DNA from: a virus
Lineage: Duplodnaviria > Heunggongvirae > Uroviricota > Caudoviricetes
DNA length: 64,000 nucleotides
Reading direction: 5' to 3' (one strand)
Virus record (IMG/VR): IMGVR_UViG_3300036985_002287
Span: 30,613 to 94,612 of that record
The translations under genes and the position numbers were made by a program. The notes beneath the pieces were generated by a model that was not told the DNA's origin, made no database searches, and saw only the letters and a program-made list of their open reading frames with translations. Below are positions 11,054-47,143 of this stretch, in pieces (position 1 is the stretch's first letter; the number at the start of each line of letters is the position of its first letter).

Positions 11054-11138
11054 TGGTGCGGCTGGCCGGACTCGAACCGGCACACCTTTCGGCGAGAGAT
11101 TTTAAGTCTCTTGTGTCTACCAATTTCACCACAGCCGC
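11054..11138 (-). tRNA. tRNA-Leu (anticodon TAA), long variable arm, CCA encoded
   Basis: Manual cloverleaf: acceptor gcggctg/cagccgc, anticodon loop cuUAAaa, T-arm gccgg-ttcgagt-ccggc, 3' ACCA. Confidence 0.85.
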
Positions 11139-12400: not shown

Positions 12401-12478
12401 TGGTAGGCCGGGTGGGAGTCTAACCCACGATCAACGGTTTATGAGACCGCTGCTTTAGGACACTAAGCTACCAGCCTA
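12401..12478 (-). tRNA. tRNA-Met (CAT) (or Ile2-type), CCA encoded
   Basis: Manual cloverleaf: anticodon loop cuCAUaa, T-stem gtggg/cccac, acceptor with one G.U pair, 3' ACCA. Confidence 0.7.
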
Positions 12479-13291: not shown

Positions 13292-13366
13292 TGGTCCGGC
13301 GTACAGGAATCGAACCTGTATTAATAGCTTAGAAGGCTACTGTTCTTTCCATTGAACTAACGCCAG
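13292..13366 (-). tRNA. tRNA-Arg (anticodon TCT), CCA encoded
   Basis: Manual cloverleaf: acceptor ctggcgt/acgccgg, D-stem gttc/gaac, anticodon loop cuUCUaa, T-arm acagg-ttcgatt-cctgt, 3' ACCA. Confidence 0.8.
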
Positions 13367-13813: not shown

Positions 13814-14014
13814 TTACTTAGCAGCTGAAGCAGGAGCGGCCTTCTTTGCAGCAACTTTCTTTGCTGGCTTCTTAGCAACCACAGTCTTCGTAGCTGCTGC
13901 TGGTGCTGCCGCTGCTGGTGCTGCCGCTGCTGCTGGTGCTGCCGCTGCTGCTGGTGTGGCAGCGAAGGCGCTGAATGCAAATGCCGTAACGATAAGGGCG
14001 ATAACATGTTTCAT
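13814..14014 (-). CDS. small secreted Ala/Pro-repeat protein with Lys-rich histone-H1-like tail
   Basis: Signal peptide MKHVIALIVTAFAFSAFA followed by (PAAAAA)n and KKPAKKVAAKKAAP; the underlying DNA is a gctgc(c/t)gctgctggtgc tandem repeat. Confidence 0.45.
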   Translation of the reverse strand: MKHVIALIVTAFAFSAFAATPAAAAAPAAAAAPAAAAPAAATKTVVAKKPAKKVAAKKAAPASAAK

Positions 14015-23544: not shown

Positions 23545-23835
23545 TTACAGTACGGGTGTTTTCAGAGGAGTTTTTGTTCCGACGGGACAAAACGTCTCAT
23601 CAACCAATACAAAGATAGGCACAATGATTGTTTCTGAAAATACAATTGCCAAGAATGTATTCCATACACTTAGTTTATAAACAAGTTCTGGATTCTTATC
23701 ATCGGCAATACCAACACAGTGACCAAACTGAGTGGTAGATGTGCAGCCAGAAAGCATAGCGGCTGCTAAGATAATAGCAATAAGTTTTTTCATTTCATTT
23801 TTTCCTGTTTTGCGGTGAATGGCTATCTGCCTCAT
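23545..23835 (-). CDS. putative lipoprotein
   Basis: Signal peptide ending LSGC (lipobox-like), 96 aa. Confidence 0.45.
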   Translation of the reverse strand: MRQIAIHRKTGKNEMKKLIAIILAAAMLSGCTSTTQFGHCVGIADDKNPELVYKLSVWNTFLAIVFSETIIVPIFVLVDETFCPVGTKTPLKTPVL

Positions 23836-24997
23836 ACCAAGCTGTCATACCGAACGGCGCAACCAATTTGCGACCGGGGTCTCCGTGAATAAGAAAGAGT
23901 GTATCACAGTAATCCGGGTCTCCCCAGGATCCGCATGGATATCCATCGGTCATCATAATGAATCTTTCAGGACAAATACCTTTCTCCTTCATGAATTTCC
24001 AATTACACATGAAGTCAGTCCCGCCTCCGCCCTTTATATCATACTGGTCGATATCGTCGAGCGTATCTGGCGTAAACTTTTGATAGTTATAAACCTTTGT
24101 ATCAAAAGTCCAAACTTCTAACTCAAAGTCCATGAACTGTTGCATAATACCTTTTGTTTCGGTTAGTAAATCACGCAGCATATCGTCACTCATAGAGCCG
24201 GAAGCGTCTACGCCTACAGCCGCTTTAACTTTGAAATCGTTCTTTGTAGCAGGCAGATATATGCCGCTTGCTTGCATCTTACGCGAGCAACGATCCCAGG
24301 TAAAATCTGCCTTTACCATAGACTGCAATTTCATATTAAGCACCTCTCTCCAATCCATCTGTGGCTCAACAAGATCCTTCAACAGGCGCCGAACACCTGC
24401 CGGTGTATGTCCGGCGCCTGCAGCCTTAGCCGCTTGCATAACAGCATTGCGAATTTCATCTGACAGAACACGTTGTTCTTCTTCTGTCATCGGCTCACCT
24501 TTGCCATCACCTGGTTCCAAGTGAATATCGAACTCGGGCCAATTGGAGTTAGGATCCTTAAGAAGCAGTTCATACACTTCTTCTGTACACATTCCTTTGT
24601 ACTTTTTATCGAAACATGCAGTTACCCCGGATGTTTTTGGATTAGGTAAAACACCGATGTGATGTTCGTCCAACTCGCAATTAATGACATAGTCAGCAGC
24701 AGCATTCCACATCTTTGGTTTGCGGCTACCTCGTCTGTCCATGTGGTCATATACGCAGTGTTCTACTTCGTGTCCTACCAGGAAGATGCACTCGGGTCGA
24801 TCGAGCTTGCTAATGAAGTCTCTGTTGTAATAGAAGTATCTACCGTCCGTCGCCGCGGTTTTACACCAAGGATCGTCTGTAGCATCCCTCAGAATCAGTC
24901 GTGTTGCAAGTGTTCCCCAAAATGGTTGTTGGAGAAGTAATGAGATTCGAGCCCTTGTCAATTGCTCCAATACTGCTTCGGCACTATTGTTAATCAT
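23795..24997 (-). CDS. VWA-domain protein with N-terminal zincin-like (HExxH) domain; partner of the MoxR ATPase (CobT/DUF2201-like)
   Basis: HEVEHC HExxH motif at the N-terminus; MIDAS motif DASGSM in the C-terminal VWA-like domain; immediately downstream of the MoxR-type AAA+ gene. Confidence 0.65.
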   Translation of the reverse strand: MINNSAEAVLEQLTRARISLLLQQPFWGTLATRLILRDATDDPWCKTAATDGRYFYYNRDFISKLDRPECIFLVGHEVEHCVYDHMDRRGSRKPKMWNAAADYVINCELDEHHIGVLPNPKTSGVTACFDKKYKGMCTEEVYELLLKDPNSNWPEFDIHLEPGDGKGEPMTEEEQRVLSDEIRNAVMQAAKAAGAGHTPAGVRRLLKDLVEPQMDWREVLNMKLQSMVKADFTWDRCSRKMQASGIYLPATKNDFKVKAAVGVDASGSMSDDMLRDLLTETKGIMQQFMDFELEVWTFDTKVYNYQKFTPDTLDDIDQYDIKGGGGTDFMCNWKFMKEKGICPERFIMMTDGYPCGSWGDPDYCDTLFLIHGDPGRKLVAPFGMTAWYEADSHSPQNRKK

Positions 24998-25048
24998 TTA
25001 ATTCCTTTGTTGTATGTATTATACATTTATACAGTTAAACAGTCAAGT

Positions 25049-25074
25049 GGAAAAGGCCCTTGCGGGCCTTTTTT
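25049..25074 (-). terminator. rho-independent terminator (aaaaGGCCCttgcGGGCCtttttt)
   Basis: GC hairpin with a T-run immediately after the MoxR gene stop. Confidence 0.6.
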
Positions 25075-26167
25075 AATCTTCCAGGATGTATTTACCGTAT
25101 TTTTCTTGGAATGTCTTGAACGTCTTCAGTTGCCGGTGACGAATAGGCAGGTTGTAATCACGTAGTGCAGTCTTAGCACCGAGCACAATCATTTCTGTCT
25201 GGAAATTGCTCATCATGTATGCAAAGAAGTGATCGATGCACTCATGCCATGTGTCCATATTGAACCCGTCTTCTTTTGCATTAGCCTTCGCAACCCATTC
25301 GTTCAGTGTGTAACACATAGAAATAGTCAGCGAATACATTGCGCTCAAGTCCTTAACATTAAGGGACTTTTCCTTACCCATCAGCACATCTTCCGACTTA
25401 GGCATGCGAGCCGAAATCTTTCTATGAGCACTAAACTCTGTTGCCAAGCCATCACCGACAGTGCCAGCAACCAGCGCCGTATTCATCGACTCAGGAATAT
25501 CATCGCTAATCAGTTGCGAAACGAATACCCAAGTACGCGGGGTAGCGAATGCCTTGTCCGGGCTCTTGCTGTCGAAGTTAAACAATTTTTGTTTGTGATG
25601 CGACAAGAAACCTACCACGTCTGGATGGATGCGGTTAGCGATTGCCCATTTTTGCCAATCTTCAAAGTTGGCCGCCATTTCCATGTGAACCAAACGATTA
25701 GCCAACGGACTTGGCATACGATATGTCACACCCTTGTCGCTATCCCTATTCCCTGCACAGACGATAGATACACCTTTTGGCAAGTGATATTCGCCGACGC
25801 GCCGATTAAGAATAAGCTGATATGCAGCAGCTTGAACGCTGGGCGGTGCAGCATTGATTTCGTCCAAGAAGAGAATGGCATTTGCCATATATGTGTCGGT
25901 AGGCAAGTCAGCAGGCTGTGCCCACTTCATTGTCTTTGACTCGGGATCGAAGTACGGAATACCTTTAATATCGGTAGGTTCCAATAACAGCAGACGCATA
26001 TCAATCACAGGGCGACCAGTTTCTTCACCGATCTCTGCAATCAATTCAGATTTACCAATACCAGGCGGTCCCCAAATCATTGCAGGACGACCTACCTTCA
26101 TACAACGAGTAAGAAGGGTGCGTACATCACGTGGACGTTCGACGCGGGAGGTATCAAGTGTAGCCAT
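25073..26167 (-). CDS. MoxR-family AAA+ ATPase (CobS-like)
   Basis: Walker A GPPGIGKS, AAA_5-like layout, Walker B ILFLDEINAAP; paired with a VWA protein. Confidence 0.8.
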   Translation of the reverse strand: MATLDTSRVERPRDVRTLLTRCMKVGRPAMIWGPPGIGKSELIAEIGEETGRPVIDMRLLLLEPTDIKGIPYFDPESKTMKWAQPADLPTDTYMANAILFLDEINAAPPSVQAAAYQLILNRRVGEYHLPKGVSIVCAGNRDSDKGVTYRMPSPLANRLVHMEMAANFEDWQKWAIANRIHPDVVGFLSHHKQKLFNFDSKSPDKAFATPRTWVFVSQLISDDIPESMNTALVAGTVGDGLATEFSAHRKISARMPKSEDVLMGKEKSLNVKDLSAMYSLTISMCYTLNEWVAKANAKEDGFNMDTWHECIDHFFAYMMSNFQTEMIVLGAKTALRDYNLPIRHRQLKTFKTFQEKYGKYILED

Positions 26168-26634: not shown

Positions 26635-27138
26635 TTACACGGGCATTTTGCCGTCAATTAACCAAACATAGGTAGGATATGTTACCGTCTCTTCAATAAT
26701 GGTAGAAATAATATTCCAATTGCCGCCACCTAATCCGGCGCCAATTAAAGGGATATGTAATTCGGACACAACATCTTCTAAGAATGACACAGCATGATTG
26801 ATTTGCTCGAAGCAGGACTGTATTGCATCATAACTACAATTTCTTGTAGGCATGCCAAATCCGTCCTGCGTAATTGCATTCCATATGACAAGCTCGGCGG
26901 TAGGACAGAAAGGGTATGCAAAACCTAAATCGAGTCCTTCCTCTTCGTGGATAGTGACATAGTCGGTATACGCTCCGGGATATTTCCTCTTTACTGCTAA
27001 GGCAACACCGGAACCCATAACACCTTGTGCATTGCATCCGTGAACAATATGACCGGATGTCACATCAAGTAAATTGCCAGTTCTATAAATAAGTTTCATT
27101 AAATCTTCCTTGTTGTATTTCGAAAATTGTTGTCCCAA
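26635..27138 (-). CDS. Macro-domain protein (ADP-ribose binding/hydrolase)
   Basis: GCNAQGVMGSGVALAV and GAGLGGGNW motifs typical of macro domains (MacroD/YmdB-like). Confidence 0.75.
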   Translation of the reverse strand: MGQQFSKYNKEDLMKLIYRTGNLLDVTSGHIVHGCNAQGVMGSGVALAVKRKYPGAYTDYVTIHEEEGLDLGFAYPFCPTAELVIWNAITQDGFGMPTRNCSYDAIQSCFEQINHAVSFLEDVVSELHIPLIGAGLGGGNWNIISTIIEETVTYPTYVWLIDGKMPV

Positions 27139-27658: not shown

Positions 27659-27848
27659 CTTCTTGTATACTTTTCAGTATGCTAATTAGTTGTGGGATTG
27701 CTTTGCGGTCCATGTGAAACACACTATTAAATGGCATTCCTTTAACCTGCATCTTCAACACAGTATCGGACGCCCACACATCAGCATACCAAGACGGTTC
27801 AAACTTTCCCTGATGTGTAGTGTCATACTGAGTGATTGTGTGTTTCAT
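27651..27848 (-). CDS. hypothetical protein
   Basis: 65-aa ORF. Confidence 0.35.
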   Translation of the reverse strand: MKHTITQYDTTHQGKFEPSWYADVWASDTVLKMQVKGMPFNSVFHMDRKAIPQLISILKSIQEDE

Positions 27849-28627
27849 TTTATATTACAAGTATTGTTTAAATTTTGCATATCGGCGCATGTATATGCTT
27901 GATAAGAATCTTTTAAAATATCCGGCATATCGATGTACTCGACTCTTGCATTATACTCCTTTGCAATTGTACGAGCAACCAACTCAAAAGATGATGCCTG
28001 CCCTGTTCCCAGATTCCATAATCCACTTTTATTAATATTCAAAAAATCCAGATGAGTTTTTATTACTTTCTGGACTTGAATAAAATCTCTCATAAAATTT
28101 TCACTATTTTTAAATAACTTAATTACACCAGTTTCCTTAGCCTGCTTTGTAAATTTAAAATGTGGGCTTGCTTGATCGCCTTTATGTTCTTCACCTTCGG
28201 GCCCATAGACATTAAAATATCTAAATCCTTGAATAATATTGCCACCGGGATGATCACGCACATATCGTTCAAATAAGTATTTACTCCATGCATACGGAGT
28301 GCGAGGATCCAATCGGGCATCTTCCTTGAATGTGCTGTTTAGTCCGTAAACGCTTGCACTACTCGAATATTGAAAATTAACTCCGTATGTTTTACAAGCA
28401 TTATACAATTGACGACTAAAATCAAAATTTTGTCTCATTACCTTTTCTATATCTCTATCAGTTGTGCTACTGATTGCACCAATATGTATAACCCAATCTT
28501 GTTCCATAACACTAGGGAGATTACTCTCGCCCCATTCATAAGTTGACACAGAATGTCCTGCAGATTCTAGTGCGGTCAACATATGACCGCCTATAAATCC
28601 TTTATAACCAGTTAATATAATATTCAC
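27845..28627 (-). CDS. hldD: NAD-dependent sugar epimerase of the HldD (ADP-L-glycero-D-manno-heptose 6-epimerase) family
   Basis: TGYKGFIGG Rossmann motif, YAWSK (YxxxK), and blocks GFRYFNVYGPEGEEHKG / FKNSENFMRDF / NLGTGQASSF / YQAYTCADM that match E. coli HldD almost motif-for-motif. Confidence 0.7.
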   Translation of the reverse strand: MNIILTGYKGFIGGHMLTALESAGHSVSTYEWGESNLPSVMEQDWVIHIGAISSTTDRDIEKVMRQNFDFSRQLYNACKTYGVNFQYSSSASVYGLNSTFKEDARLDPRTPYAWSKYLFERYVRDHPGGNIIQGFRYFNVYGPEGEEHKGDQASPHFKFTKQAKETGVIKLFKNSENFMRDFIQVQKVIKTHLDFLNINKSGLWNLGTGQASSFELVARTIAKEYNARVEYIDMPDILKDSYQAYTCADMQNLNNTCNIK

Positions 28628-28980
28628 TTCTGGCTATCTCCCGGCATAACACGATAATTATCTTCTACACTATCCGGTGTACTAACTTCCAGAATAGTGC
28701 CTGCTTCAAGACAGATAACTTGATGCGGAGATAGTGGTGGATTATGGTGTATCATCCCTGCTTCTAAAGTACATTCAAATATCTGTGCATTACTTGTCTG
28801 AATATATCTGACTAAGAACTTGCCACTCATGATACGCCATGTTTCTTCTTTAACTGAATGAAAGTGCATACTGAATCTAGAATCTTTATCGAAATGCATT
28901 AGTTTACTACAATATTTGTCATTAGATATCCAAATTTCTTCCGATCCCCAACCTTTTTTTACTCGGCCATTTAATCTCAT
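28624..28980 (-). CDS. cupin-domain protein (sugar isomerase/epimerase-like)
   Basis: 118 aa with His-containing cupin motifs (MHFHSVKEETW ... HHNP); translationally coupled to the HldD-like gene. Confidence 0.45.
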   Translation of the reverse strand: MRLNGRVKKGWGSEEIWISNDKYCSKLMHFDKDSRFSMHFHSVKEETWRIMSGKFLVRYIQTSNAQIFECTLEAGMIHHNPPLSPHQVICLEAGTILEVSTPDSVEDNYRVMPGDSQK

Positions 28981-29186
28981 ATATTACCTCTTCCTATTCT
29001 GCTGTAACCTAACTCACTCATTGTGTCACGCCGACCTTCTCGCTTGTCGTTTTCGTATTGTTGAATGACAAGCATGGCAAACTTTTCCAATTCTGATTCA
29101 CTAAAATTCCAGGGCTGTTTATGGTACTTTTCATAATCTCTTTGCCCGCCGGCCTTAAGAGTAAGTTGTCGAATTCGTTCATTCAT
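28977..29186 (-). CDS. MNE/KFAELIV small-protein family member (divergent)
   Basis: MNERIRQL...EKFAMLVIQQ; start ATG 29184-29186 overlaps the preceding paralogue's stop (ORF track lists a TTG start at 29198). Confidence 0.45.
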   Translation of the reverse strand: MNERIRQLTLKAGGQRDYEKYHKQPWNFSESELEKFAMLVIQQYENDKREGRRDTMSELGYSRIGRGNI

Positions 29187-29397
29187 CACTAACTCCAAAA
29201 TGTTCTAAAATAGAAGGCCGGACTAATCTTGCCTCACCGTGTGTCGCTGCATGATTACCAATGTCAGCACACTCCTGCACGATAAGTTCGGCAAACTTAC
29301 CAAGTTGGATCATGGCGAACTGATTGTCACCTTCTTGTGTGTGCTTGTCTGCATACGCATAGGCTTGCTTTTGCAGGGCTAAAAGTCGTTCATTCAT
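29179..29397 (-). CDS. MNE/KFAELIV/HFGVEE small-protein family member
   Basis: MNERLL...KFAELIVQEC...HFGVSDE. Confidence 0.55.
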   Translation of the reverse strand: MNERLLALQKQAYAYADKHTQEGDNQFAMIQLGKFAELIVQECADIGNHAATHGEARLVRPSILEHFGVSDE

Positions 29398-29600
29398 TCT
29401 TCAACTCCGAAATGTTTAAACATCGCAACTACCCCTTCATGATCGTGCCCGCAAAACTCACCACATTCCCGAACAATCAACTCGGCGAACTTTTTCATCA
29501 CAGTAGAGTCCAGAGTATCTTTTGGATCGTACATATACACAGCATCACCCCACACGGCAATACCAGCCTGTTCAGCAAGTAGTCGAATTCGTTCGTTCAT
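29394..29600 (-). CDS. MNE/KFAELIV/HFGVEE small-protein family member
   Basis: MNERIRLL...KFAELIVREC...HFGVEE. Confidence 0.55.
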   Translation of the reverse strand: MNERIRLLAEQAGIAVWGDAVYMYDPKDTLDSTVMKKFAELIVRECGEFCGHDHEGVVAMFKHFGVEE

Positions 29601-29770
29601 TCTTCTACTCCAAAGTGTTGTTTAATCACCAACTTATATTCAAGCGCCCGTGGATCAATTGGCGGCTCTACTTTTTCATGAACTAGTTGGTGTCTACCTT
29701 CAGTGTTTGTTACACCAAGTAATACACCATTATGATATACTTCCCATTCGTATCTATTTTCGTCAATCAT
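29597..29770 (-). CDS. small protein ending ...HFGVEE (family member, 57 aa; below ORF-track size cut-off)
   Basis: Own translation: MIDENRYEWEVYHNGVLLGVTNTEGRHQLVHEKVEPPIDPRALEYKLVIKQHFGVEE; ATGA-coupled on both sides. Confidence 0.45.
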   Translation of the reverse strand: MIDENRYEWEVYHNGVLLGVTNTEGRHQLVHEKVEPPIDPRALEYKLVIKQHFGVEE

Positions 29771-29982
29771 TCTTCTACTCCAAAGTGTTCTCTTATAATC
29801 TCTGCACCAGAAATACCGTAATCATTAACACGCAGGTTTTTAACTTGTTCGGCACATTCCCGAACAATAAGTTCGGCAAACTTTTCTTGTTGTTCTACCC
29901 ACGCTTCACAATATTCTCTGCCGTGAAAATCTAAAAACTTAATATCAGCCTGCGTGGCAAGTTCTTTAATTAGTTCATTCAT
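29767..29982 (-). CDS. MNE/KFAELIV/HFGVEE small-protein family member
   Basis: MNELIKEL...EKFAELIVRECAE...HFGVEE. Confidence 0.55.
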   Translation of the reverse strand: MNELIKELATQADIKFLDFHGREYCEAWVEQQEKFAELIVRECAEQVKNLRVNDYGISGAEIIREHFGVEE

Positions 29983-30193
29983 GCTTCGGCTCCAGACTAC
30001 CGCGTTCTAACCAAAGCGCAATGGCATTGTTGGATGTGTGGGATACATGTTCAATCCCTTTACTATCCACAAAAATAATGTCTTTACCGTCAAACTTTAG
30101 GTGACCATTCTCTGGTCCGATGATCATGTCATACGAATCATTGTGTGTCAGAAAACCTAACACAACGGGCCGCAGGATTGTATATTCATTCAT
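29975..30193 (-). CDS. small protein of the MNE.../...EPKHE junction group
   Basis: Starts MNEY, ends LEPKHE; shares the 20-nt junction ttcattcatgcttcggctcc with the two following genes. Confidence 0.45.
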   Translation of the reverse strand: MNEYTILRPVVLGFLTHNDSYDMIIGPENGHLKFDGKDIIFVDSKGIEHVSHTSNNAIALWLERGSLEPKHE

Positions 30194-30440
30194 GCTTCGG
30201 CTCCCGAGGGTCTTTGAAATACAATTTTTGATAATCAGGTGTAGATTTACCCAATGGTTGGATCATTGGTAATGTTCCGCCCAATTCAATTACTTGCCTA
30301 CGCAACTCTGTTATTTCTTCTAAAGAAGCCAGGTATAATGTGTCCCATGGCTTACCGTAGTTCAACGCATTTTCCAATACAGGCACAATGTCCTGGTCTC
30401 TGATTTGTTTTACTTGTTCATTCATGCTTCGGCTCCACAC
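30186..30440 (-). CDS. small protein of the MNE.../...EPKHE junction group
   Basis: Starts MWSRSMNEQ, ends REPKHE. Confidence 0.45.
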   Translation of the reverse strand: MWSRSMNEQVKQIRDQDIVPVLENALNYGKPWDTLYLASLEEITELRRQVIELGGTLPMIQPLGKSTPDYQKLYFKDPREPKHE

Positions 30441-30711
30441 CCTCTGGGTTTAACAGTTGAAAACAAAAATACTCCTCGCAATCGCTGCCAGGATCTCTCT
30501 TTTCTTTATGCAGGCGACACCAACCATCGCCGGTGTAGCAACCTTCAGCATCACCGTTGAAGTTATAGTAAGCACAGTGGTCACAGCAAGTGAACCCTGG
30601 AGCGCAATCAGGACATAGTTTCATTTCATTTCCACATTGTGGCTCCGCACTTGGTGCAATCATACGCAGTATCATTATGTCCATGACCAGCAAAACGCCA
30701 ATAGTGTTCAC
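30418..30711 (-). CDS. Cys-rich small protein of the ...EPKHE junction group
   Basis: 97 aa, 12 Cys (CPDCAPGFTCCDHC...), ends VEPKHE. Confidence 0.45.
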   Translation of the reverse strand: MNTIGVLLVMDIMILRMIAPSAEPQCGNEMKLCPDCAPGFTCCDHCAYYNFNGDAEGCYTGDGWCRLHKEKRDPGSDCEEYFCFQLLNPEGVEPKHE

Positions 30712-30798
30712 AGGTTCGTTGTTTCTCTTTTAAATCTACTGCTGCTTTAATCTTGGCACGATGATCCAGCACTAGTTGCTTTTCTTCTTCAGTTAGTT

Positions 30799-31308
30799 TC
30801 ATGTGTTGCCGCCAGCTTCTACAAAATTAATTTTAACACAGAATTTTTCCTTCCAGCTCCTGTAGGCGTGTTTCACAAAACCGTCCGGTCTATTTCGATA
30901 TTCGGTGCTTCTCTTGCGTTCGATATACCATTTAAACAGAAATGTCATCCCGAAGGTCGCAACAACCAGAAGAGTGATAATCATGGTTACTTCCGCCCAA
31001 GAAGAGAAGAACCAAGTACCGAGCATGAAACTGAACCAAACACCGATCAGGACGTGTGCCAGAAGAAAACCGACCAAACCTATTAAGGCAGCGGCTATTG
31101 CCAATAGCAATGCACCGCCCATAACATGCTTGGAGTATGTGCAGATATCTGCACTATCTCCGTATGTATAAAACTCACCGTCGCTATATTCGCAGACGCT
31201 GGGCACCCTGTAGTTGGCTACTTTTGTAGCAAGCAAAAAGTGCCAGCTGTTTACATTAAATGTAAGTGTTTTCATTTTGTTTCCTAAAAATAAAGGGGTT
31301 ACACACAT
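30799..31308 (-). CDS. integral membrane protein
   Basis: 169 aa with 3-4 hydrophobic helices. Confidence 0.45.
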   Translation of the reverse strand: MCVTPLFLGNKMKTLTFNVNSWHFLLATKVANYRVPSVCEYSDGEFYTYGDSADICTYSKHVMGGALLLAIAAALIGLVGFLLAHVLIGVWFSFMLGTWFFSSWAEVTMIITLLVVATFGMTFLFKWYIERKRSTEYRNRPDGFVKHAYRSWKEKFCVKINFVEAGGNT

Positions 31309-31357
31309 TATAGCGTATAACCCCTAATATTGCAATAGGTGTTGCCACCTATGTTTC

Positions 31358-32602
31358 TTACTTAGAAGTCTTGCCCTTAGTGACAGACATATCAATACCA
31401 AGTTCTCGCGCAGTCTTAGCAGTGAGCATTTCAACAAGAGCAGCAGCACCGTTTCCGCCTTGGGCACTATTACCCATCACTACACTCGGAACCCAAGCGC
31501 CTTGATATTCACCCATTGCAGTTGCATAAGCCTTTGATACAGTTACATACGCTTCCAGCTTTGCATCCAAAGCACCGTCCGCGTTCATTCGCAGAGACTT
31601 TGCTTGTGCATCACCTTCACCACGAAGAATTTGTTCCTTCTTGTATTGTTCAGCAGCCTTTGCACCTAGCGTTGCCACAGCCACAGCCTTTTCAGCGAAA
31701 GCAATTTCCTTGGCATTCAGTGTTTCTTGTTCCCACTTTGCCTTAGCCGCAGTTGCCTTACCTTGTTGCTCAGTTGTGATCGCATCTTGTTCAGCTTTCT
31801 TTGCGTTGGCGATAGAGATTTGAACACCAGTTGTTGACTGTTGACGTTGCTTGATCTGGTCTTCAACGATCTGGTCGTACTTGATTTCGTTGATTGAGAC
31901 CGGCTGTAAAATGATGCCATACTTCGTAATCTGGGATTCAGATTCACGCATCGGCTGACCCTTGTCATTCATTGCAATCTGCACCACAGCCACTTGCTTA
32001 TCAGCACCAGTGATCGGATCCTTCTGCGTGACTGTGACAGTCTTTGTCAGATACGGACCGTGAATCAACTGATCGTCAATGTACTTCGGAATCTCAGGAC
32101 GCTTTTCAGCCGATGATTCAGTTGAACTCATTGTGGGTCCGACGTTGTAAATAACTTTCTGCATCGCCGGGCGAATCAATTGCTGCTCAATGGCGCCGAC
32201 TGATCCAAAGTCCTTGTGAAGCGCCACGATCTGTTCGTGCTTCAACGGCATCTGCCAGTTCACTGTTCCGGAGATGTTACCGTGACCACCGTCATTGAAG
32301 CGAGTGGAGATTGATTCATCAGTCGTTTTTCCCTGATCTTTCACGGAACTAAACGAGAACTGATCACGCCGTTGATACGTTGTAACTTTGCCGAACGCCT
32401 GGGCTTTCCAACCGGGTTCAGTAAAAGTATTCAGATCGCCGCCAAGTGCCTGAATCACCATGAGGTTCTTCGCATCAAGATTTTCCACCAGCATTGGCAG
32501 ACATATCAGAAGTGCGAAAAATGCAAGCCCTGATAGAGCGCCGACTAGAATTCGGCGCGGGGTAATTGTGGGGGTGTTCATGTAGTTTTTCCTTGGTAAC
32601 AT
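31358..32602 (-). CDS. SPFH/band-7 (HflK/C-, stomatin-like) domain membrane protein
   Basis: N-terminal TM anchor, central SPFH-like region and Ala/Lys/Glu/Gln-rich coiled-coil tail typical of HflK/HflC-type proteins. Confidence 0.6.
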   Translation of the reverse strand: MLPRKNYMNTPTITPRRILVGALSGLAFFALLICLPMLVENLDAKNLMVIQALGGDLNTFTEPGWKAQAFGKVTTYQRRDQFSFSSVKDQGKTTDESISTRFNDGGHGNISGTVNWQMPLKHEQIVALHKDFGSVGAIEQQLIRPAMQKVIYNVGPTMSSTESSAEKRPEIPKYIDDQLIHGPYLTKTVTVTQKDPITGADKQVAVVQIAMNDKGQPMRESESQITKYGIILQPVSINEIKYDQIVEDQIKQRQQSTTGVQISIANAKKAEQDAITTEQQGKATAAKAKWEQETLNAKEIAFAEKAVAVATLGAKAAEQYKKEQILRGEGDAQAKSLRMNADGALDAKLEAYVTVSKAYATAMGEYQGAWVPSVVMGNSAQGGNGAAALVEMLTAKTARELGIDMSVTKGKTSK

Positions 32603-32915: not shown

Positions 32916-33158
32916 TTAATTGTCTAGTGGATTAAGGTTACTTTTGAAATGGTTGTTTACTACAGAAGCAAAATATTCTCGACGATATCGGTCTTTGGTC
33001 ATAATAACATCGGAGCATTCTTTAACAATTAATCTAGCAAATTCTTCTAATGCTTCTTCAGGGCAAATTACATAAGCAGGTGCTGACCCAGATACTACTC
33101 GAACGAACGGTATACCGGCCTGTTCGGCAAGTTGTTTCAGTTGTTCATTCATTACCAA
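32916..33158 (-). CDS. MNE/FARLIV small-protein family member (divergent)
   Basis: MVMNEQLKQLAEQAGI...EEFARLIVKEC. Confidence 0.45.
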   Translation of the reverse strand: MVMNEQLKQLAEQAGIPFVRVVSGSAPAYVICPEEALEEFARLIVKECSDVIMTKDRYRREYFASVVNNHFKSNLNPLDN

Positions 33159-33346
33159 CCTTCTACGCCGGATACTTCAATCTTAAATTCGCCCTCTTCA
33201 CCCTCGATTGTGGTCCGTATTGTCATAGAAGTGGTTGAACCTATGCCGCTCGAATTATCCTGTTCAATTAAGAAGGTTTCGATATTAGGAAATTTATCCA
33301 TAATCTCTACCATCTTCTTTAAATCATCTCTGTGTATGTACATCAT
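33152..33346 (-). CDS. hypothetical protein
   Basis: 64-aa ORF. Confidence 0.35.
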   Translation of the reverse strand: MMYIHRDDLKKMVEIMDKFPNIETFLIEQDNSSGIGSTTSMTIRTTIEGEEGEFKIEVSGVEGW

Positions 33347-33363
33347 TTAACTCCGAATATTAA

Positions 33364-33807
33364 TTAGATCGAATACTCGTAATTAACGGTATCCGTGTTT
33401 TCCCTAAAAATCGCAGCACCATTCTTTAAATGGAATCGGCGAGCCATAGGCGTTTTAGGACTTAGTGTGACAAATCGTGTTACTGTTGGATATTGTATGC
33501 GAATGCTATCGACAGCCTTTAGTAACAGTTCGGCGCCTGCACCTGGTTTGTAACTCCATATTGTATAAAACACCGCCATAGTTGGATTATCGGTATTAGT
33601 TGATAGTTCGGCAACGTTCTCGGGAATCTCAGAATGGAAGCTGACACATACCATAGCATCAGGCGTACTATTCGATAAATCGTTGGATAGTGCAATAACT
33701 ATACGGCCGTCACTTACTCGGAACTCAGTTGGAATTTCCGGGCGGACAGGATCGTCTTTGATAAAGGATAGAAAGGAATTTAGGGTGTCTTTTATGTAAT
33801 GTATCAT
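33364..33807 (-). CDS. putative GNAT-family acetyltransferase
   Basis: KPGAGAELL (motif A-like R/QxxGxG/A) and C-terminal RFHLKNGA; weak. Confidence 0.35.
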   Translation of the reverse strand: MIHYIKDTLNSFLSFIKDDPVRPEIPTEFRVSDGRIVIALSNDLSNSTPDAMVCVSFHSEIPENVAELSTNTDNPTMAVFYTIWSYKPGAGAELLLKAVDSIRIQYPTVTRFVTLSPKTPMARRFHLKNGAAIFRENTDTVNYEYSI

Positions 33808-33864: not shown

Positions 33865-34062
33865 TCAGTGTATTTTCTTTCTGAATATCTTAGCTTCCAA
33901 AAGTACATAAAAAGCCATAACCAAATTAATCATAGGCACCAAAGAGACGACCGCGCCGATGCAAATATCAACAATAGTGATAGAGCCTCGCTGCTTTCGA
34001 GTGCCGTAGAAAATACACACAAACGAAAGTAATACTGTTAATAAATAAATAGTTCCCATCAT
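33865..34062 (-). CDS. small membrane protein
   Basis: 65 aa, two hydrophobic helices. Confidence 0.4.
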   Translation of the reverse strand: MMGTIYLLTVLLSFVCIFYGTRKQRGSITIVDICIGAVVSLVPMINLVMAFYVLLEAKIFRKKIH

Positions 34063-34200
34063 TTCTTTCCCATCTCATAACGCCACGAATTATACGCATC
34101 GATACCCCAGCGGCGTTTCAACGATTCTTTTCCCATACATTCAATAAGAAGCTGATAATAACAAACTCGGAAATTACTATACTTGCCCAATATAAAATAG

Positions 34201-34515
34201 TCATTCTTCAACTCCAAAATGTCCTTCGAGTGTTCTTATCGCAACGAGTAACCCATCGTCGAATGCTCGATCATACACTTGACCAGCGGTGCCAACTTTG
34301 ATCGCTCTTACTTCTTCAATTTGATTAATACTTTCACGAATGATTAATTCTGCGAATTTTCTGTAGTCAAAATCACGTAACCCCTCGTGATCGCTTCCAT
34401 AAGGGGCAATCAATCCAGCTTTTCTTGCTAGGTCTCTCGTAATATCAATCATATACCTTCCAACAGTTGTTGTCATAGTCCCAGTGTCGGGTGTCGTAAA
34501 TCTGCACTTCCACAC
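34201..34515 (-). CDS. MNE/KFAELII/HFGVEE family member with N-terminal extension
   Basis: ...YRKFAELIIRES...EGHFGVEE. Confidence 0.5.
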   Translation of the reverse strand: MWKCRFTTPDTGTMTTTVGRYMIDITRDLARKAGLIAPYGSDHEGLRDFDYRKFAELIIRESINQIEEVRAIKVGTAGQVYDRAFDDGLLVAIRTLEGHFGVEE

Positions 34516-36512: not shown

Positions 36513-37439
36513 TCAATCTTTTAGATCTACCTTGTTCACAACAAAAGGCTCTATTTCCTTAAACTCGGTTTCAGTGGCCTGGTAGAATTTCCATTCATTT
36601 AATTCGACACAAGTTAATCCAGCCCATTTCTTCGGCGCCACACCATGCTGCGAATATCCGCCTGTATTCGACCAGCGACATTGCCATGCGCCGGTATCGA
36701 TACAAGTCTGCCCTACTATAGTAATTGGTTGATGTAATGTTGTATGGCCACAGATGATGTGTGATAGCTCATCATTAAACATACCAGTCATGTCGTTATA
36801 TTTAATTACTCTGACTATCTTATCTCTATTACTTAAATCGCGTTCATACATCTCGTAGAATATACATCTATGCCATGTAAGTGAATCACCTTCATAACAT
36901 GGAACAGTTGCTATTTTTCTTACGTCATCCGGGTCAGATAAAATTTCATCCGAAAGAGGTACCCGTACCTCCGGGAATTCTGCGTGAATGATATGAAACT
37001 TTTTACCATTCTTTACATCTACTGTAATAAGGTAAGGCAATTCCTCTACAAGTGGCAGTAGATCAAACAGGGCAACACTATGATCGGAAGGTATCAGTGC
37101 CGGATTCTTTTTATCGTTTATTGCTTCTATTCCCCATTGTCCACCATTATTAAACCACATACTATCAGTCCCGTGCGGCCAGTGGAATTTTTCAAGCATC
37201 ATCTGTTCATGATTACCTAACACAGCATGAAACCAAGGCTCTCTAATTAGTTCCAAACATTTGAGATGGTCGGGACCTCGGTCGACCAAGTCACCAACGG
37301 AAATCATACGGTCGATGGTAGTATCGAAATTAATATTCTTTAGCAAATTCTGAAGCACATCGTAGCATCCGTGGAGGTCTCCGATCACGAAATCGCGACC
37401 TAATAAATTCGTCTCTAATGTCTTTAATGCATCCTTCAT
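36513..37439 (-). CDS. Ser/Thr protein phosphatase (calcineurin-like metallophosphoesterase, lambda-PPase family) with C-terminal extension
   Basis: GDLHGC, GDLVDRG, GNHE and downstream His motifs of the PPP family. Confidence 0.75.
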   Translation of the reverse strand: MKDALKTLETNLLGRDFVIGDLHGCYDVLQNLLKNINFDTTIDRMISVGDLVDRGPDHLKCLELIREPWFHAVLGNHEQMMLEKFHWPHGTDSMWFNNGGQWGIEAINDKKNPALIPSDHSVALFDLLPLVEELPYLITVDVKNGKKFHIIHAEFPEVRVPLSDEILSDPDDVRKIATVPCYEGDSLTWHRCIFYEMYERDLSNRDKIVRVIKYNDMTGMFNDELSHIICGHTTLHQPITIVGQTCIDTGAWQCRWSNTGGYSQHGVAPKKWAGLTCVELNEWKFYQATETEFKEIEPFVVNKVDLKD

Positions 37440-37705
37440 TCTTTAATTCCCCATACTTTCTTTGTAGCTTCTAATGTAAATGCACCACTCGTTGTAATGC
37501 GAGTTAAAAAATCTTCCTCTTCCTGTGTTAGTACGGGAATCGGTCTAATCTCATACCAAAATTCGTAAGAATCGTTTTTACCGAAATCTTCCTCTTGTCT
37601 TGCACACTTATCGCAAAATGGATGATCGCCCGCAAACTGAGTTGAACGAATCCATACAGTGGGAGCATTGCATATTATACAAAATTCCTCTTTTATTTTT
37701 GTCAT
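37436..37705 (-). CDS. hypothetical zinc-ribbon protein
   Basis: 89 aa; CIIC...CDKC. Confidence 0.4.
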   Translation of the reverse strand: MTKIKEEFCIICNAPTVWIRSTQFAGDHPFCDKCARQEEDFGKNDSYEFWYEIRPIPVLTQEEEDFLTRITTSGAFTLEATKKVWGIKE

Positions 37706-38025
37706 TCTTCAACTCCGAAGTGTTCACTAATGCTATCTCTGATTGTTTGGGCAGTATCATCATTATCCCAATTAAACTCCAATGCGTTCTTATGTTCTTG
37801 GTGGACAATACCCAAACATTCCCGAACAATAAGTTCGGCGAACTTTTCCGGGCTAAACTTAGTTTCGGTAGTAGTTACATAACGATAAGGCGGCCGATCA
37901 TTATCCCATGCACCCGAAATTTCCCGAGTTTCGATTGTGATAATAGATTGTTTTTCAAGTTCTTGCAGTCGTTTATTCATTTTATTCCTGCTAATACATT
38001 TAACACGTTTTCCTGATCTGCCCAT
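37702..38025 (-). CDS. MNE/KFAELIV/HFGVEE family member with N-terminal extension
   Basis: ...EKFAELIVRECLG...SEHFGVEE. Confidence 0.5.
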   Translation of the reverse strand: MGRSGKRVKCISRNKMNKRLQELEKQSIITIETREISGAWDNDRPPYRYVTTTETKFSPEKFAELIVRECLGIVHQEHKNALEFNWDNDDTAQTIRDSISEHFGVEE

Positions 38026-43437: not shown

Positions 43438-44340
43438 TTATGCCATGCTTACATATAAATGCTGTTGTAGGTTCAGCTTGAATCCATGATCAAGACAGTA
43501 TTTACCTGTGTATTCGTGATTACGTTGATTTTCTACTAAGTTTAATAATCCAGGTTCCCAGAAAGAAATTACCTCATCTACTGTAGATCGTTCTGCCATT
43601 GTGATCTCACCTTTCTCTGCTCGAAGTAATTTAATCTTCTGCGGAAAGTCATTATATACATTCATAGGGGAACAATAGATTTCTTTCTCCGGATTAAGTC
43701 TTTTCCATTCGTGTGCCCATTCCGGGACTGTGCTATATGGACTTACCGGGTCCGCACTCATTACAAACTTAAGGCAGTCGGCCCGCTTAAGAATCATATC
43801 AGTCGGTGCTAAATACTTTGTTGCTACACCGTTCTTTTCCGAACACTTGGGAGAACATACAACAGTGACGTGACTGGCTATATATGGATTGCTTATTGTG
43901 CCATTAGTTTCGATTTGAATTGCCTTAAATACCGGTTCAACACTATCCATAAAACCTAATAAATTAGATTGCAACATCGGCTCGCCACCCGTGATAACTA
44001 AGACAATGTTCGGCCAATGGAAGCTTGGCTGTGGCCGAGGGAAACGAGTCATTGCCCACTCCGGCGGCACTTCTGGCGGTGTCCGTGTAGCCCAATAATT
44101 ACGAATAGTATCAAATGCCTTATGCTGAATTTCATCATATGTCATCCATGTACCGTCATCAAAGAAAGTATCGCAGAAAGAACATGCTAGGTTACACTTT
44201 GCTAATCTGATGAATAGTGCAGGTAGACCAGCATAGGGTCCTTCTCCTTGCAACGTAAAGAACATACTTGTAACATACAAGCTGCCTTTAGGTGCTTTAT
44301 CAAAAAATTTCTTGCCAATTATTGTATTAGTTCCGAACAT
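43438..44340 (-). CDS. queE: 7-carboxy-7-deazaguanine synthase QueE (radical SAM)
   Basis: MFFTLQGEGPYAGLPALFIRLAKCNLACSFCDT, VLVITGGEP and QIETNGT are near-identical in spacing to E. coli QueE motifs (FQTLQGEG...CxxxCxxCDT...ITGGEP...QIETSGT). Confidence 0.85.
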   Translation of the reverse strand: MFGTNTIIGKKFFDKAPKGSLYVTSMFFTLQGEGPYAGLPALFIRLAKCNLACSFCDTFFDDGTWMTYDEIQHKAFDTIRNYWATRTPPEVPPEWAMTRFPRPQPSFHWPNIVLVITGGEPMLQSNLLGFMDSVEPVFKAIQIETNGTISNPYIASHVTVVCSPKCSEKNGVATKYLAPTDMILKRADCLKFVMSADPVSPYSTVPEWAHEWKRLNPEKEIYCSPMNVYNDFPQKIKLLRAEKGEITMAERSTVDEVISFWEPGLLNLVENQRNHEYTGKYCLDHGFKLNLQQHLYVSMA

Positions 44341-44520
44341 TATTCTTTATCCTCGAATTTAACAAGTTTAACTCTGACGCCTTCAAATTCATTATCGAAC
44401 GCAACAGTGACAACTTCCAAAACTTCTTCACAGCCTGTTACGCCACGATCATTTATGTCATTCCAGAACTCATCATCGCCTTCTTCTATAACAAATTCGA
44501 ATATGTATCTTTTCATATAT
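44341..44520 (-). CDS. small acidic hypothetical protein (59 aa)
   Basis: Own translation MKRYIFEFVIEEGDDEFWNDINDRG...; ATGA-coupled to queE. Confidence 0.35.
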
Positions 44521-44576
44521 AGTCCTTATCTGTTATTATAGCGATTTTCGATATGTAAGTCAAGTCACCTATCGAA

Positions 44577-44900
44577 TTATACACCAGATGAGTCGCCCCA
44601 TGTATGCATATATTTAGATAGTCTTATCATCTTATTAACACGGGCTTTTTCTATACCAGAAGCGGTAACACCGAGATTCGCGTTAGTAACCATATCTACC
44701 AACGCCAATACATCTCCTAATTCCATTTCTAAATTTTCAAGATTAGTTGTTGTAGAAGCAGGGTTCTTACCCACTACACCAAATCGTTTAATTTTAGATG
44801 CTGCCTGAATTACTTCGGCACATTCTTCCTGAAGAATATTAAGACATTCTTCCTGATGATCATTTACTTGTTTCAAATTTTTTCTCCCAATTCCATGCAT
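44577..44900 (-). CDS. putative MazG-like nucleotide pyrophosphohydrolase
   Basis: all-alpha, ECLNILQEECAEVIQA resembles the MazG EExxE metal-binding helix; weak. Confidence 0.35.
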   Translation of the reverse strand: MHGIGRKNLKQVNDHQEECLNILQEECAEVIQAASKIKRFGVVGKNPASTTTNLENLEMELGDVLALVDMVTNANLGVTASGIEKARVNKMIRLSKYMHTWGDSSGV

Positions 44901-45828
44901 GTGATATAATATCTTTTATATTATATTGAGGTTCCCAATGTAATATATTCTTAGCCTTATCTATACATGCCGTCAATATTGCAGGATCTCCTTTGCGAGG
45001 TGCAACATATTCATATATAGGCTCTTTACCAACTACTTCACCTGCATATTTAACTAGCTCTGTTAAACTTATGCCACCGGTACCACCACCTAAGTTAAAT
45101 ATTTCATTACTGAAACCGGCATTAAGGAATTCTATCGCCTGTACGTGACCTTCTGCTAAGTCAGACACATGAATATAGTCCCTAACACAAGTTCCGTCTT
45201 TTGTAGCATAGTTGTTACCGAATATTTGAAATACTTCATTATTCATTATTTTATTACATATAATAGGAATAACATGAGTAGCAGGGCGCTGTGTATATCC
45301 GAATCGACATTCTGGATCAGCACCTGCGGCATTAAAATATCTAAATGTGATATACTTGATACCATATGCTCTTGCATAATCCCTGATCATTAATTCTCCT
45401 GCTGTCTTTGACGATGCATAGGAATTTTCTGGATCATAATACATATCTTCTTTTAGATATAGAGCTCTGCCTTGCCTACCATATAAATTTCCGGTAGAAC
45501 TAAAGACGATATTTTTTATGCCTATAGCGACCATATGATCGAGCATAACCTGCATTTTTACCACATTATTCGTGTAATATTTAGCCGGCTCTGACAGGCT
45601 TTGCGGCACAATATGCTCCGCTGCCAGATGCACTATTGTATCAAATTTAGTTGTATTTGTTTTAATGAAGTCACAATAATCTGATTCAATAACTTCGCCT
45701 GGACCATTCCAGTTCTGTGTATTCTTATCCACAATAGTAATTTTGTGACCTTCTTCGTGTAATTTATATACTACTTGCGTACCTATAAATCCACAGCCTC
45801 CGGTAACTAGAATATTATGTCTTCTCAT
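44860..45828 (-). CDS. galE: UDP-glucose 4-epimerase (GalE family)
   Basis: VTGGCGFIGT, YASSK, and C-terminal blocks IFGNNYATKDGTCVRDYIHVSDLAEGHV / APRKGDPAIL closely matching E. coli GalE. Confidence 0.85.
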   Translation of the reverse strand: MRRHNILVTGGCGFIGTQVVYKLHEEGHKITIVDKNTQNWNGPGEVIESDYCDFIKTNTTKFDTIVHLAAEHIVPQSLSEPAKYYTNNVVKMQVMLDHMVAIGIKNIVFSSTGNLYGRQGRALYLKEDMYYDPENSYASSKTAGELMIRDYARAYGIKYITFRYFNAAGADPECRFGYTQRPATHVIPIICNKIMNNEVFQIFGNNYATKDGTCVRDYIHVSDLAEGHVQAIEFLNAGFSNEIFNLGGGTGGISLTELVKYAGEVVGKEPIYEYVAPRKGDPAILTACIDKAKNILHWEPQYNIKDIISHAWNWEKKFETSK

Positions 45829-46202
45829 TAGTTGGGAAAATATTCTAATATTCCACCATTAATATTATCTTCGTAAATCTCTACCTTAATGTATCTACCT
45901 TCATACCTGTATCGAATTTTATCGATAAGCTGTTCTGCTAACATCTCACAGCTCATATAGTCCATTTTTAGTTCTTCCACATATAAGGATTCCAGCCATC
46001 GTCTAAACTGAATGAATTCTATATCACGATTGTTCTGGAATACTTCCACAGTTACAACAAAGTAAAAATAGTGGAAGTGTTCGTGTCCTAAGAAAGATAC
46101 ATCATCCCACTTACCCGTCTTTAAGGTAGGATCTGTTAATGCTTCCGGATACCTATGTGTACCTTCTTTAGTAAATTTTACGTTTATATATCGCTTAATC
46201 AT
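45828..46202 (-). CDS. QueD/PTPS-like (6-carboxy-tetrahydropterin synthase family) protein
   Basis: KFTKEGTHRYPE and LGHEH resemble QueD FTFEAAHRLP and LHGHS zinc-ligand motifs; about 120 aa like QueD. Confidence 0.45.
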   Translation of the reverse strand: MIKRYINVKFTKEGTHRYPEALTDPTLKTGKWDDVSFLGHEHFHYFYFVVTVEVFQNNRDIEFIQFRRWLESLYVEELKMDYMSCEMLAEQLIDKIRYRYEGRYIKVEIYEDNINGGILEYFPN

Positions 46203-46353
46203 ACAATCTCTTCGATAATACCTAATATCTCTGCAACTACAATCATTGTACCTGCAAAAAACAGATTTCCTGCAGCAAGACTACATCCTGCCACAATGCG
46301 TAATGCGCTCTTAACGAAACTAATTCGTTGATGTAATTTAGGATCTGGCTGTC

Positions 46354-47142: not shown

Positions 47143-47143
47143 A

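Follow-up and report, generated by a model that had tools for sequence, protein, structure and literature searches.

We analysed a stretch of 64,000 nucleotides (nt) of DNA from a virus of the Caudoviricetes (IMG/VR record IMGVR_UViG_3300036985_002287, positions 30,613 to 94,612), hereafter referred to as the window, and focus on an array of small, tightly packed genes, all of them on the minus strand, that are joined to one another by a sequence of about 20 nt which we term the linker. In the direction of transcription, used for all gene orders given here, the operon includes a gene for a Cys/His-containing protein of 58 amino acids (aa), Zn58 (30626..30802), immediately followed by three genes that we refer to as cassettes A, B and C: A (30418..30624) encodes a Cys-rich protein of 68 aa, B (30186..30425) a protein of 79 aa and C (29975..30193) a protein of 72 aa. 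These are followed by a 71-aa member of a small-protein family (29767..29982, with the family core at 29854-29883), by cassette X (29597..29770; 57 aa), which lacks the family core and ends in a C-terminal cap, KQHFGVEE, of the family type, and by three more family genes of 68 aa (29394..29600, core 29463-29492), 72 aa (29179..29397, core 29269-29298) and 69 aa (28977..29186). The last of these is divergent, with a degenerate core (KFAMLVIQQY) and no HFGV C-cap, and is coupled through an ATGA overlap to a cupin gene at 28624-28980.

Proteins of the family are 60-110 aa long and share a common layout, consisting of an N-terminal cap (MNERIxELAEQAG), an N-variable segment of few types, the core KFAELIVREC, a hypervariable C-half and a C-terminal cap, (K/E)HFGV(E/K)E. 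A profile built from the paralogs matches exactly seven genes in the window, all at E <= 4e-15. Besides the four in the array, these are three dispersed genes, also on the minus strand, lying close to where such members had been predicted: a 78-aa gene at 32916..33152, an 83-aa gene at 34201..34452 (start MIDITRDLARKAGL; HFGVEE-type linker at 34196-34215), and a 92-aa gene at 37702..37980, whose HFGVEE-type linker (37697-37716) joins it to an unrelated 89-aa gene at 37436-37705. The genes at 29597 (X), 29975 (C), 30186 (B) and 30418 (A) are not matched by the profile. All-against-all BLASTP comparison of A, B, C and two further cassettes found in related phages, D and E, shows that they have in common only their 5-6 terminal residues; beyond those residues, X weakly resembles one family gene in the C-terminal third of the latter. 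The original prediction, made from the sequence of the window, described at least seven consecutive paralogs starting with MNE. The family is real, with its seven members in the window, but A, B, C and X are not part of it, and an MNE start is found in six of the eight linker-joined genes, X starting with MIDE and A with MKLC. The companion claim, that the junctions are kept even where the encoded proteins are unrelated, is borne out by A, B, C and X, which have only linker-encoded termini in common.

Ratios of nonsynonymous to synonymous divergence (dN/dS) are 0.01-0.08 (A), 0.13 (C), 0.15-0.17 (D) and 0.20 (X), indicating that these are real genes, and in the case of D confirming its reading frame. 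The Cys-rich gene A had been predicted to span 30418..30711 and to be unrelated to the family, which it is; its GTG start at 30711 appears to be mis-called, and the most likely start is the ATG at 30624, since orthologs begin MK(K)LCPDC directly after a linker.

Two types of linker are present in the array, all on the minus strand. The EPKHE type, named after the peptide that it encodes at the end of the upstream protein, occurs as an exact 20-mer, GGAGCCGAAGCATGAATGAA, at the A>B (30417..30436), B>C (30185..30204) and C>Fam (29974..29993) junctions, Fam denoting a family gene; at A>B it comprises the Shine-Dalgarno (SD) sequence GGAG and, after a spacer of 7 nt, the start codon (ATG) of B together with the stop codon (TGA) of A, the two genes overlapping by 8 nt. 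The HFGVEE type is found at the Fam>X junction (GGAGTAGAAGAATGATTGAC, 29762..29781, with a 4-nt ATGA overlap), the X>Fam junction (GGAGTAGAAGAATGAACGAA, 29592..29611) and a Fam>Fam junction (GGAGTTGAAGAATGAATGAA, 29389..29408). A variant, GGAGTTAGTGATGAATGAA (29179..29197), lies at the next Fam>Fam junction, where the upstream protein ends in HFGVSDE and the overlap is 8 nt. A related observation, at 29018-29182, concerns a form of the linker, ATGAATGAACGAA, with a nested pair of ATG-AAx-GAA (MNE) starts that lie 4 nt apart and differ in frame. The second of these opens a 54-aa alternative-frame open reading frame (ORF) within the family gene at 28977-29186 that is probably not expressed, and the pair illustrates how a 4-nt slip at the linker changes frame.

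The two linker types differ at only three positions of a common core, GGAGnnGAAGnATGAA, and each lies across the end of one gene (its last 5-6 codons) and the beginning of the next (its first 3 codons), the two genes overlapping by either 4 or 8 nt. At all array junctions GGAG is followed after 7 nt by ATG, and the stop codon of the upstream gene overlaps this start, as ATGA or ATGAATGA; the location of the SD inside the upstream coding region, together with the stop/start overlap, is found at all eight junctions from A to the family gene at 28977. In the HFGVEE type the upstream frame is read as ttT GGA GTx GAA GAA TGA and the overlap is 4 nt (ATGA), and in the EPKHE type it is read as xxG GAG CCG AAG CAT GAA TGA and the overlap is 8 nt, the gene downstream of the latter opening with ATG AAT GAA (MNE). 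Because the linker contains ATGAATGA, it supplies one frame with a start codon and the other two with stop codons. This anatomy fits translational coupling of neighbouring genes, and we infer that coupling operates at the linkers.

Conservation of the junctions at the DNA level, as originally proposed, is well supported by motif counts. A degenerate 21-mer for the HFGVEE type, TCATTCTTCWACTCCRAARTG, has 5 exact matches (29394, 29597, 29767, 34201 and 37702) with 0 expected by chance, and TTCATTCATGCTTCGGCTCC, for the EPKHE type, matches exactly at 29974, 30185 and 30417 with 0.01 expected. The latter three positions are precisely those predicted; for the HFGVEE type, five of the six predicted sites are recovered with offsets of 1-5 nt, and the sixth, near 29180, is the variant with one extra codon (HFGVSDE). 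Furthermore, on the coding strand of the whole window, the only 14-mers with at least three copies belong to the two linkers, the family core and one unrelated tandem repeat. Overlaps of the ATGA kind are common in this genome (26/124 boundaries), whereas GGAG at exactly 7 nt from the start and MNE starts are each found in 9/125 window genes, such that the linker junction is not the default style of the genome.

A potential explanation for these similarities is that they are a by-product of selection for a ribosome-binding site, its spacing and the stop/start overlap, combined with the conserved termini of a tandemly duplicated family, with differences in cassette content arising through random illegitimate recombination filtered for intact and expressed genes, and with the linker being no preferred site of crossover. 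The high frequency of ATGA overlaps is in keeping with this, and illegitimate recombination followed by functional selection is considered to build much of the mosaicism of phages (PMC3974807). We therefore compared codon usage in 33 non-identical family genes (from the window and ten related loci) with a background of 27 long ORFs from the window. In the C-cap, Gly is encoded by GGA in 28/28 cases (background 26%) and the following base is G in 25/28, creating the Shine-Dalgarno sequence GGAG, while the codons for His, Phe and Val vary roughly like background. Consequently, the similarity of HFGVEE-type junctions mainly reflects constraint from the peptide and from the ribosome site, as the by-product explanation holds.

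The EPKHE-type linker behaves differently. Its exact 20-mer is read in two frames, giving ...FGAEA* (ttT GGA GCC GAA GCA TGA) in cassette D of L001 and L006 and ...EPKHE* elsewhere (here and below, L numbers denote the related loci described in the next paragraph). Moreover, distant orthologs of A (L011 and L012; 66-67% identity) end in ...KKEGE* at another junction and lack the EPKHE tail, from which it follows that VEPKHE, the last 5-6 residues of A, is a scar encoded by the linker. In L005 the downstream gene has AAC in place of AAT at codon 2, which removes the second TGA, and A consequently reads through to end in ...EQKHERTT*. The suggestion that codon constraints of the terminal peptides might account for the junctions thus fails for the EPKHE type, in view of its two frames and the tail-less orthologs, and mostly succeeds for the HFGVEE type. 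Several further observations are at odds with the by-product explanation, which we consider unlikely. Each genome carries 3-4 exact 20-mers between unrelated genes, including CCG and AAG positions that are free of SD or overlap constraint; one 20-mer serves two upstream frames; linker-encoded tails are common to unrelated genes and missing in distant orthologs; and all breakpoints examined fall at a linker or at the family core. Synonymous sites are also strongly conserved in the core, where GCC accounts for 26/33 Ala codons (background 12%), AAG for 21/23 Lys codons (49%) and CGG for 11/14 Arg codons (8%), and in the N-cap, where Arg4 is usually CGA (background 13%) and Leu8 mostly CTT (16%).

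Relatives of the array were gathered by scans for the exact 20-mer, by searches with protein A and by exact-protein look-ups, resulting in 29 loci. Excluding 3 duplicate fetches, a chance match (L017) and the window's own population (L028), 24 distinct related contigs remain, and all comparison sequences are metagenomic. A protein-pattern search of viral contigs for cassette B was empty, and B was recovered through the metagenome linker scan and an exact-protein look-up, the latter placing the exact B protein on 21 contigs. The rejected match in L017 (7014-7033) is an exact 20-mer located where an hsdM-like gene (type I restriction methylase) begins, on an apparently bacterial contig, and was judged to be due to chance given the large size of the collection and the unrelated context. 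Neither near nor distant nucleotide searches with the array found a match in 50,697 deposited phage genomes.

Variation in cassette content among these relatives, which the cassette idea called for, is abundant, with eight arrangements downstream of A among the 24 contigs. The window and L028 share the order Zn58-A-B-C-Fam-X-Fam-Fam-Fam (L028 ending just past C), and among the relatives Zn58 is upstream of A only in L018 and L028. L006 and L027 have Fam-m65-A-C-D-E-Fam-Fam; L004 has Fam-[75-aa membrane gene]-A-C-D-m45-Fam; L007 has A-C-D-Fam-p126-Fam-m65; L029 has A-C-Fam; L008, L009 and L010 have Fam-X-A (continuing as -m45-Fam in L008, and ending inside A in L009 and L010); L005 has A-Fam-Fam-s46; L014 has A-Fam-m65; and L015, L018 and L019-L026 have A-B-Fam. 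Cassette B is accordingly not present in L004, L006, L007 or L029, and is followed by a family gene rather than C in L015, L018 and L019-L026, while X is found directly upstream of A in L008, L009 and L010. In all, the linker GGAGCCGAAGCATGAATGA(A) joins ten pairs of genes (A>B, A>C, A>Fam, A>m45, B>C, B>Fam, C>Fam, C>D, D>E and E>Fam), and cassette-specific sequence abuts it on both sides.

The boundaries of these differences are exact. Cassette B is an indel in the comparison of the window with L006, in which the matches for A and for C overlap in L006 by precisely the 20-nt linker, and in the alignment of the window with L018 homology ends at the B>C linker, exactly after ...ATGAATGAA. In L006 and L027 the A-C-D-E-Fam-Fam array is found at a different genomic site from that of the window. 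The L006 array (L006 10001-11366) lies between homologs of window genes 33865-34062 and 33152-33346, as does that of L027; at the corresponding position the window has a 147-aa gene (33364-33807) with a weak match to the malonyl-CoA-decarboxylase-C (GNAT-like) domain, and at the window's array site L006 has two small genes only. Separately, codon 22 of the family gene after B is an in-frame TAG in L019-L026 (e.g. L019 2733-2975) and TGG in the L004 ortholog. The ORF is otherwise intact through HFGVEE in these eight independent contigs, and the gene may be either a pseudogene or subject to stop-codon readthrough or suppression.

Neighbouring cassettes also differ sharply in their synonymous divergence (dS). 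Between the window and L018, dS is 0.90 for A and 0.02 for B; between the window and L006 it is 0.73 for A and 0.00 for C; and between the window and L004 it is 0.21 for A and 0.35 for C. In terms of nucleotide identity, C is 99.6% identical to its counterpart in L006, and the neighbouring A 88.5%. Such contrasts between adjacent cassettes indicate that neighbours have had separate histories. Together with the exact indels and the ten gene pairs, they support the original proposal that the linker is the boundary of a recombination cassette.

It might be argued that the shuffling is artefactual, with metagenome assemblers having joined co-occurring strains over short repeats. Indeed, the B of the window is ~99% identical to one lineage and its C 99.6% identical to another, as would be expected of a chimera, and the sequences are all metagenomic. 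However, the arrangements recur in independent contigs from different samples and assemblers, namely A-B-C in the window and L028, A-C-D-E in L006 and L027, A-B-Fam in L015, L018 and L019-L026, X-A in L008, L009 and L010, and A-Fam in L005 and L014, the only exceptions being L004, L007 and L029. L028 differs from the window by 3 mismatches in 2,475 nt and has the same Zn58-A-B-C order, L027 has the gene order of L006, and the A-B-Fam order is found in ten contigs from several samples and assemblers. Repeats of 20 nt are, moreover, shorter than the final k-mers usually employed in assembly, and we regard an artefact as hardly credible.

Exchange is also apparent within the family genes themselves. 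The N-half of the 29767..29982 gene is common to L008 (87% nt identity), and its C-half is unrelated; the C-half of the 29394..29600 gene is 97% identical to a gene of L006, and its N-half only 56%; and for the 29179..29397 gene this is reversed, with an N-half at 94% and a C-half at 61%. Overall, nucleotide identities of the N-half and C-half flip across the core in five comparisons (0.56/0.97, 0.94/0.61, 0.87/0.51, 0.97/0.56 and 0.61/0.95), and one stretch common to the window and L006 extends from the core of a gene to that of the following gene. The C-module GEFCGHDHEGVVAMF is found behind three different N-halves. Clustering of modules from 154 family proteins, a sample biased towards top matches, gave 35 N-half and 100 C-half clusters, with one N-module combined with 50 C-modules and one C-module with 6 N-modules. 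A four-gamete-style test on the same 154 proteins found no pair of N-clusters having two or more C-clusters in common, and the combinatorial signal hence rests on single shared modules. We also considered hypermutation of the C-half of the kind produced by diversity-generating retroelements, and rejected it, as the variants differ in length and cannot be aligned together, which points to replacement of modules and not to point mutation.

The precision of the boundaries and the repetition of the site could suggest that cassettes are moved by a dedicated enzyme, either a site-specific recombinase of the integron kind or a nuclease, homing or otherwise sequence-specific, for which the linker would be the recognition site. 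Several lines of evidence make this very improbable. The linkers have no hairpin or inverted repeat (RNA-fold z scores of -2.12 to +0.97, with 6/7 within ±1), an Rfam search of the array found nothing, and no integrase, recombinase or homing-nuclease domain was detected in ~30 ORFs scanned within the window, itself 64 kb of a genome of at least 200 kb. Crossovers additionally occur at the unrelated core block inside genes, which is better accommodated by general homologous recombination than by a site-specific enzyme. On the side of a dedicated enzyme, a 254-aa ORF (L008 13274-14038) about 3 kb downstream of the L008 array was noted, by eye only, as a candidate GIY-YIG (Seg-like) homing endonuclease.

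Considering the above, we think it probable that the linker is a translational-coupling element that also serves as a short stretch of homology for recombinational swaps of single genes. Under this explanation the region would be a hyperplastic, tightly packed operon of small accessory genes joined by a linker of the form GGAG-N7-ATGA(ATGA)A, which would derive from the fused C-cap (HFGVEE) and N-cap (MNE...) of the mosaic family. The linker carries the SD and the start of the downstream gene and, by way of ATGAATGA, stops in two frames for the upstream gene. As it is, along with the KFAELIVREC core within family genes, the sole sequence common to unrelated neighbours, homologous recombination at these blocks could delete, insert, replace or relocate genes or half-genes, in exchanges between co-infecting relatives or inside one genome, and each recombinant would remain properly terminated, properly started and translationally coupled. 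A by-product would be the acquisition by unrelated proteins of an N-terminal MNE and a C-terminal EPKHE, FGAEA or FGVEE tag, and the shared blocks would themselves be constrained by their translational role. Homologous recombination at short shared blocks is the most economical explanation of these patterns, and it is the mechanism of cassette exchange that we infer.

A number of points weigh against this interpretation. Recombination at the linker is deduced from comparative patterns, and a block of 20 nt is short if homologous recombination is to be efficient. On its left side, the recent exchange of B is not sharply delimited, as divergence is already lower over the last ~70 nt of A than over its 5' part. 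Synonymous sites of the HFGVEE class are mostly at background levels apart from GGA, so that selection on translation and a conserved peptide suffice for that class, and the synonymous-site counts treat non-independent paralogs as independent; linked codon haplotypes in the core (GAG-TTG vs GAA-CTT) indicate shared descent among these paralogs. The linker may either be kept for promoting exchange or be merely exploited by it. Lastly, the array proteins have no match in Pfam, PHROGs, PDB or the literature.

A more far-reaching possibility, which we regard as doubtful, is that linker, N-cap and core together form a dedicated diversity-generating architecture, their sequences being held by selection or gene conversion as recombination sites, through which the population continually reassorts, on an invariant scaffold ready for expression, a pool of unrelated mini-genes and hypervariable C-half modules numbering in the thousands. 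If true, this would be a recombinational analogue of the cassette systems of antigenic variation, probably serving an arms race with host defences, and excised mini-circles of ~200 bp may be intermediates. The invariant GGAG is of interest in another respect, as the T4 endoribonuclease RegB cuts GGAG in early Shine-Dalgarno sites and, by analogy, the linker could be the target of a RegB-like enzyme.

The linker had been likened in its role to the PeSLs (promoter-early stem-loops) that mediate shuffling in T4-type phages (Arbiol et al. 2010, PMC2839356; Comeau et al. 2014, PMC4122927). Both are short conserved elements repeated between the small ORFan genes of hyperplastic regions, both bound indels and replacements between close relatives (as is the case here), and both carry expression signals, so that an inserted gene would be expressed at once; the PeSL, too, ends in the SD and start codon of the downstream gene. 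However, PeSLs are defined by a sigma70-like early promoter (-35, -10 and an AT-rich upstream region) and a stem-loop terminator (PMC2839356). We placed no promoter at a linker in a scan of 28500-31500 (10 promoters overall, compared with 7.5 ± 2.5 in shuffled sequence), found no common stem-loop in 70-nt folds around the seven linkers (z again -2.12 to +0.97) and found no terminator-like site at a linker. PeSLs are also intergenic and conserved over ~100 bp, whereas the linker is ~20 nt long and lies wholly in overlapping coding sequence, acting on translation (SD, start and stop) and leaving peptide scars. The analogy is therefore one of role, in bounding indels, and does not extend to promoter, stem-loop or intergenic position. 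Excised mini-circles with one element and one gene are a further feature of PeSLs. A PeSL-like element does occur elsewhere, at 31294-31335 (minus strand), shortly before the first gene of the operon, which encodes a 158-aa membrane protein. Here a promoter-like TTGCAA-17 nt-TATAAT (matching at 10/12 positions) is overlaid at its -10 box by a 13-bp stem-loop, with a T-run after it, and the element may be the early promoter or attenuator of the whole array.

Conserved boundary or linker sequences also feature in the modular theory of phage evolution of Susskind and Botstein and the associated work on lambdoid phages. That theory is summarised in PMC3974807. Its linkers are intergenic or gene-end homologies between large functional modules of temperate phages, whereas here the unit is a single gene of ~200 nt or a half-gene, and the linker is a defined coupling junction, usable in two reading frames and tied to one very large mosaic family. 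Ordinary ATGA-coupled junctions likewise have the SD within the upstream gene and a stop overlapping the start, but do not keep an identical 20-mer between unrelated pairs and do not mark boundaries of exchange. The array resembles integron cassettes in being made up of single promoterless genes, each with a recombination site, that vary in content and order. It differs from integrons in that the folds of the seven linkers show no attC-like imperfect inverted repeat, in the lack of an integrase among the window ORFs scanned, in that the sites overlap coding sequence, and in that exchange takes place also inside genes, at the core.

With regard to function, Pfam and PHROGs searches with all nine array proteins gave nothing useful, and the family proteins have no match in either. 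A profile search with 8,000 candidates scored found at least 7,870 homologs of the family at E <= 0.001, and among the 120 matches listed none has a Pfam domain or a functional name, so that the family is indeed uncharacterised, as was originally stated. A tblastn search with the family consensus found no match in the same 50,697 deposited phage genomes, a literature search with family peptide motifs returned no matching papers, and an exact-protein look-up of the 29394 gene product found nothing on record. An AlphaFold model of this protein (predicted local distance difference test, pLDDT, 83; predicted template modelling score, pTM, 0.70) comprises an N-cap helix, a β-hairpin, a long core helix and a C-cap helix; it has no PDB fold match, and its fold neighbours in BFVD are uncharacterised proteins of uncultured phages only. 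As a guess, these proteins may act early, as accessory or host-interaction factors in which a constant helical scaffold presents the hypervariable C-half.

The phage itself is a novel jumbo phage. Its family-B DNA polymerase (53368-56316) has 43% identity to that of Sinorhizobium phage Phosso, 41-42% to those of Agrobacterium phage Atu_ph07 and a Vibrio jumbo phage, and 38% to the Rak2/121Q-like group, which, according to the polymerase, would place it in the wider T4-related jumbo group. Other genes in the window encode a ligase, a 5'-3' exonuclease, and radical-SAM and sugar-modifying enzymes. Among the latter, a cupin and NAD-epimerase pair (27845-28980) is translationally coupled directly to the end of the array, and a second cluster (43438-49985) comprises epimerase/dehydratase, ADH-like and GFO/IDH oxidoreductase genes and a radical-SAM-like protein; in L019-L026 the array is followed, past an 81-aa gene, by genes for an epimerase and a methyltransferase. 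Unusual cargo for a phage includes a 738-aa ClpB-like double AAA+ chaperone (61080-63296), a sigma-70 region 4 protein (57625-58761), and a MoxR-like AAA ATPase beside a DUF2201 VWA/metallopeptidase protein (23795-26167). A macro-domain-like protein (26635-27138) was noted by eye only. The minus strand also carries tRNA genes for Leu(TAA), Met(CAT) and Arg(TCT), at 11054-11138, 12401-12477 and 13292-13366, respectively, and at ~13909-13963 a 15/18-nt tandem repeat, CAGCAGCGGCAGCACCAG..., that encodes an Ala/Pro-rich (PAAAAA)n tract and, apart from the linkers and the family core, is the sole source of multi-copy 14-mers in the window.

Phages hold most of the unannotated genes of biology, and how small ORFan genes are gained, lost and moved is only partly understood. 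The locus described here suggests that a much shorter element, acting on translation, can fill the role of a PeSL, and would represent a second route to gene shuffling, in which a gene inserted between two linkers is automatically terminated, started and coupled. Its distinctive features are this action at the level of translation, entry from two frames, peptide scars and the link to a very large, unannotated mosaic family. The linker accounts for termini common to unrelated small proteins that might otherwise be mistaken for homology, and provides a simple sequence signature for locating hyperplastic regions in uncultured jumbo phages. The family itself, with at least ~7,900 small proteins built as mosaics around three constant blocks, offers good candidates for host-interaction or anti-defence functions.

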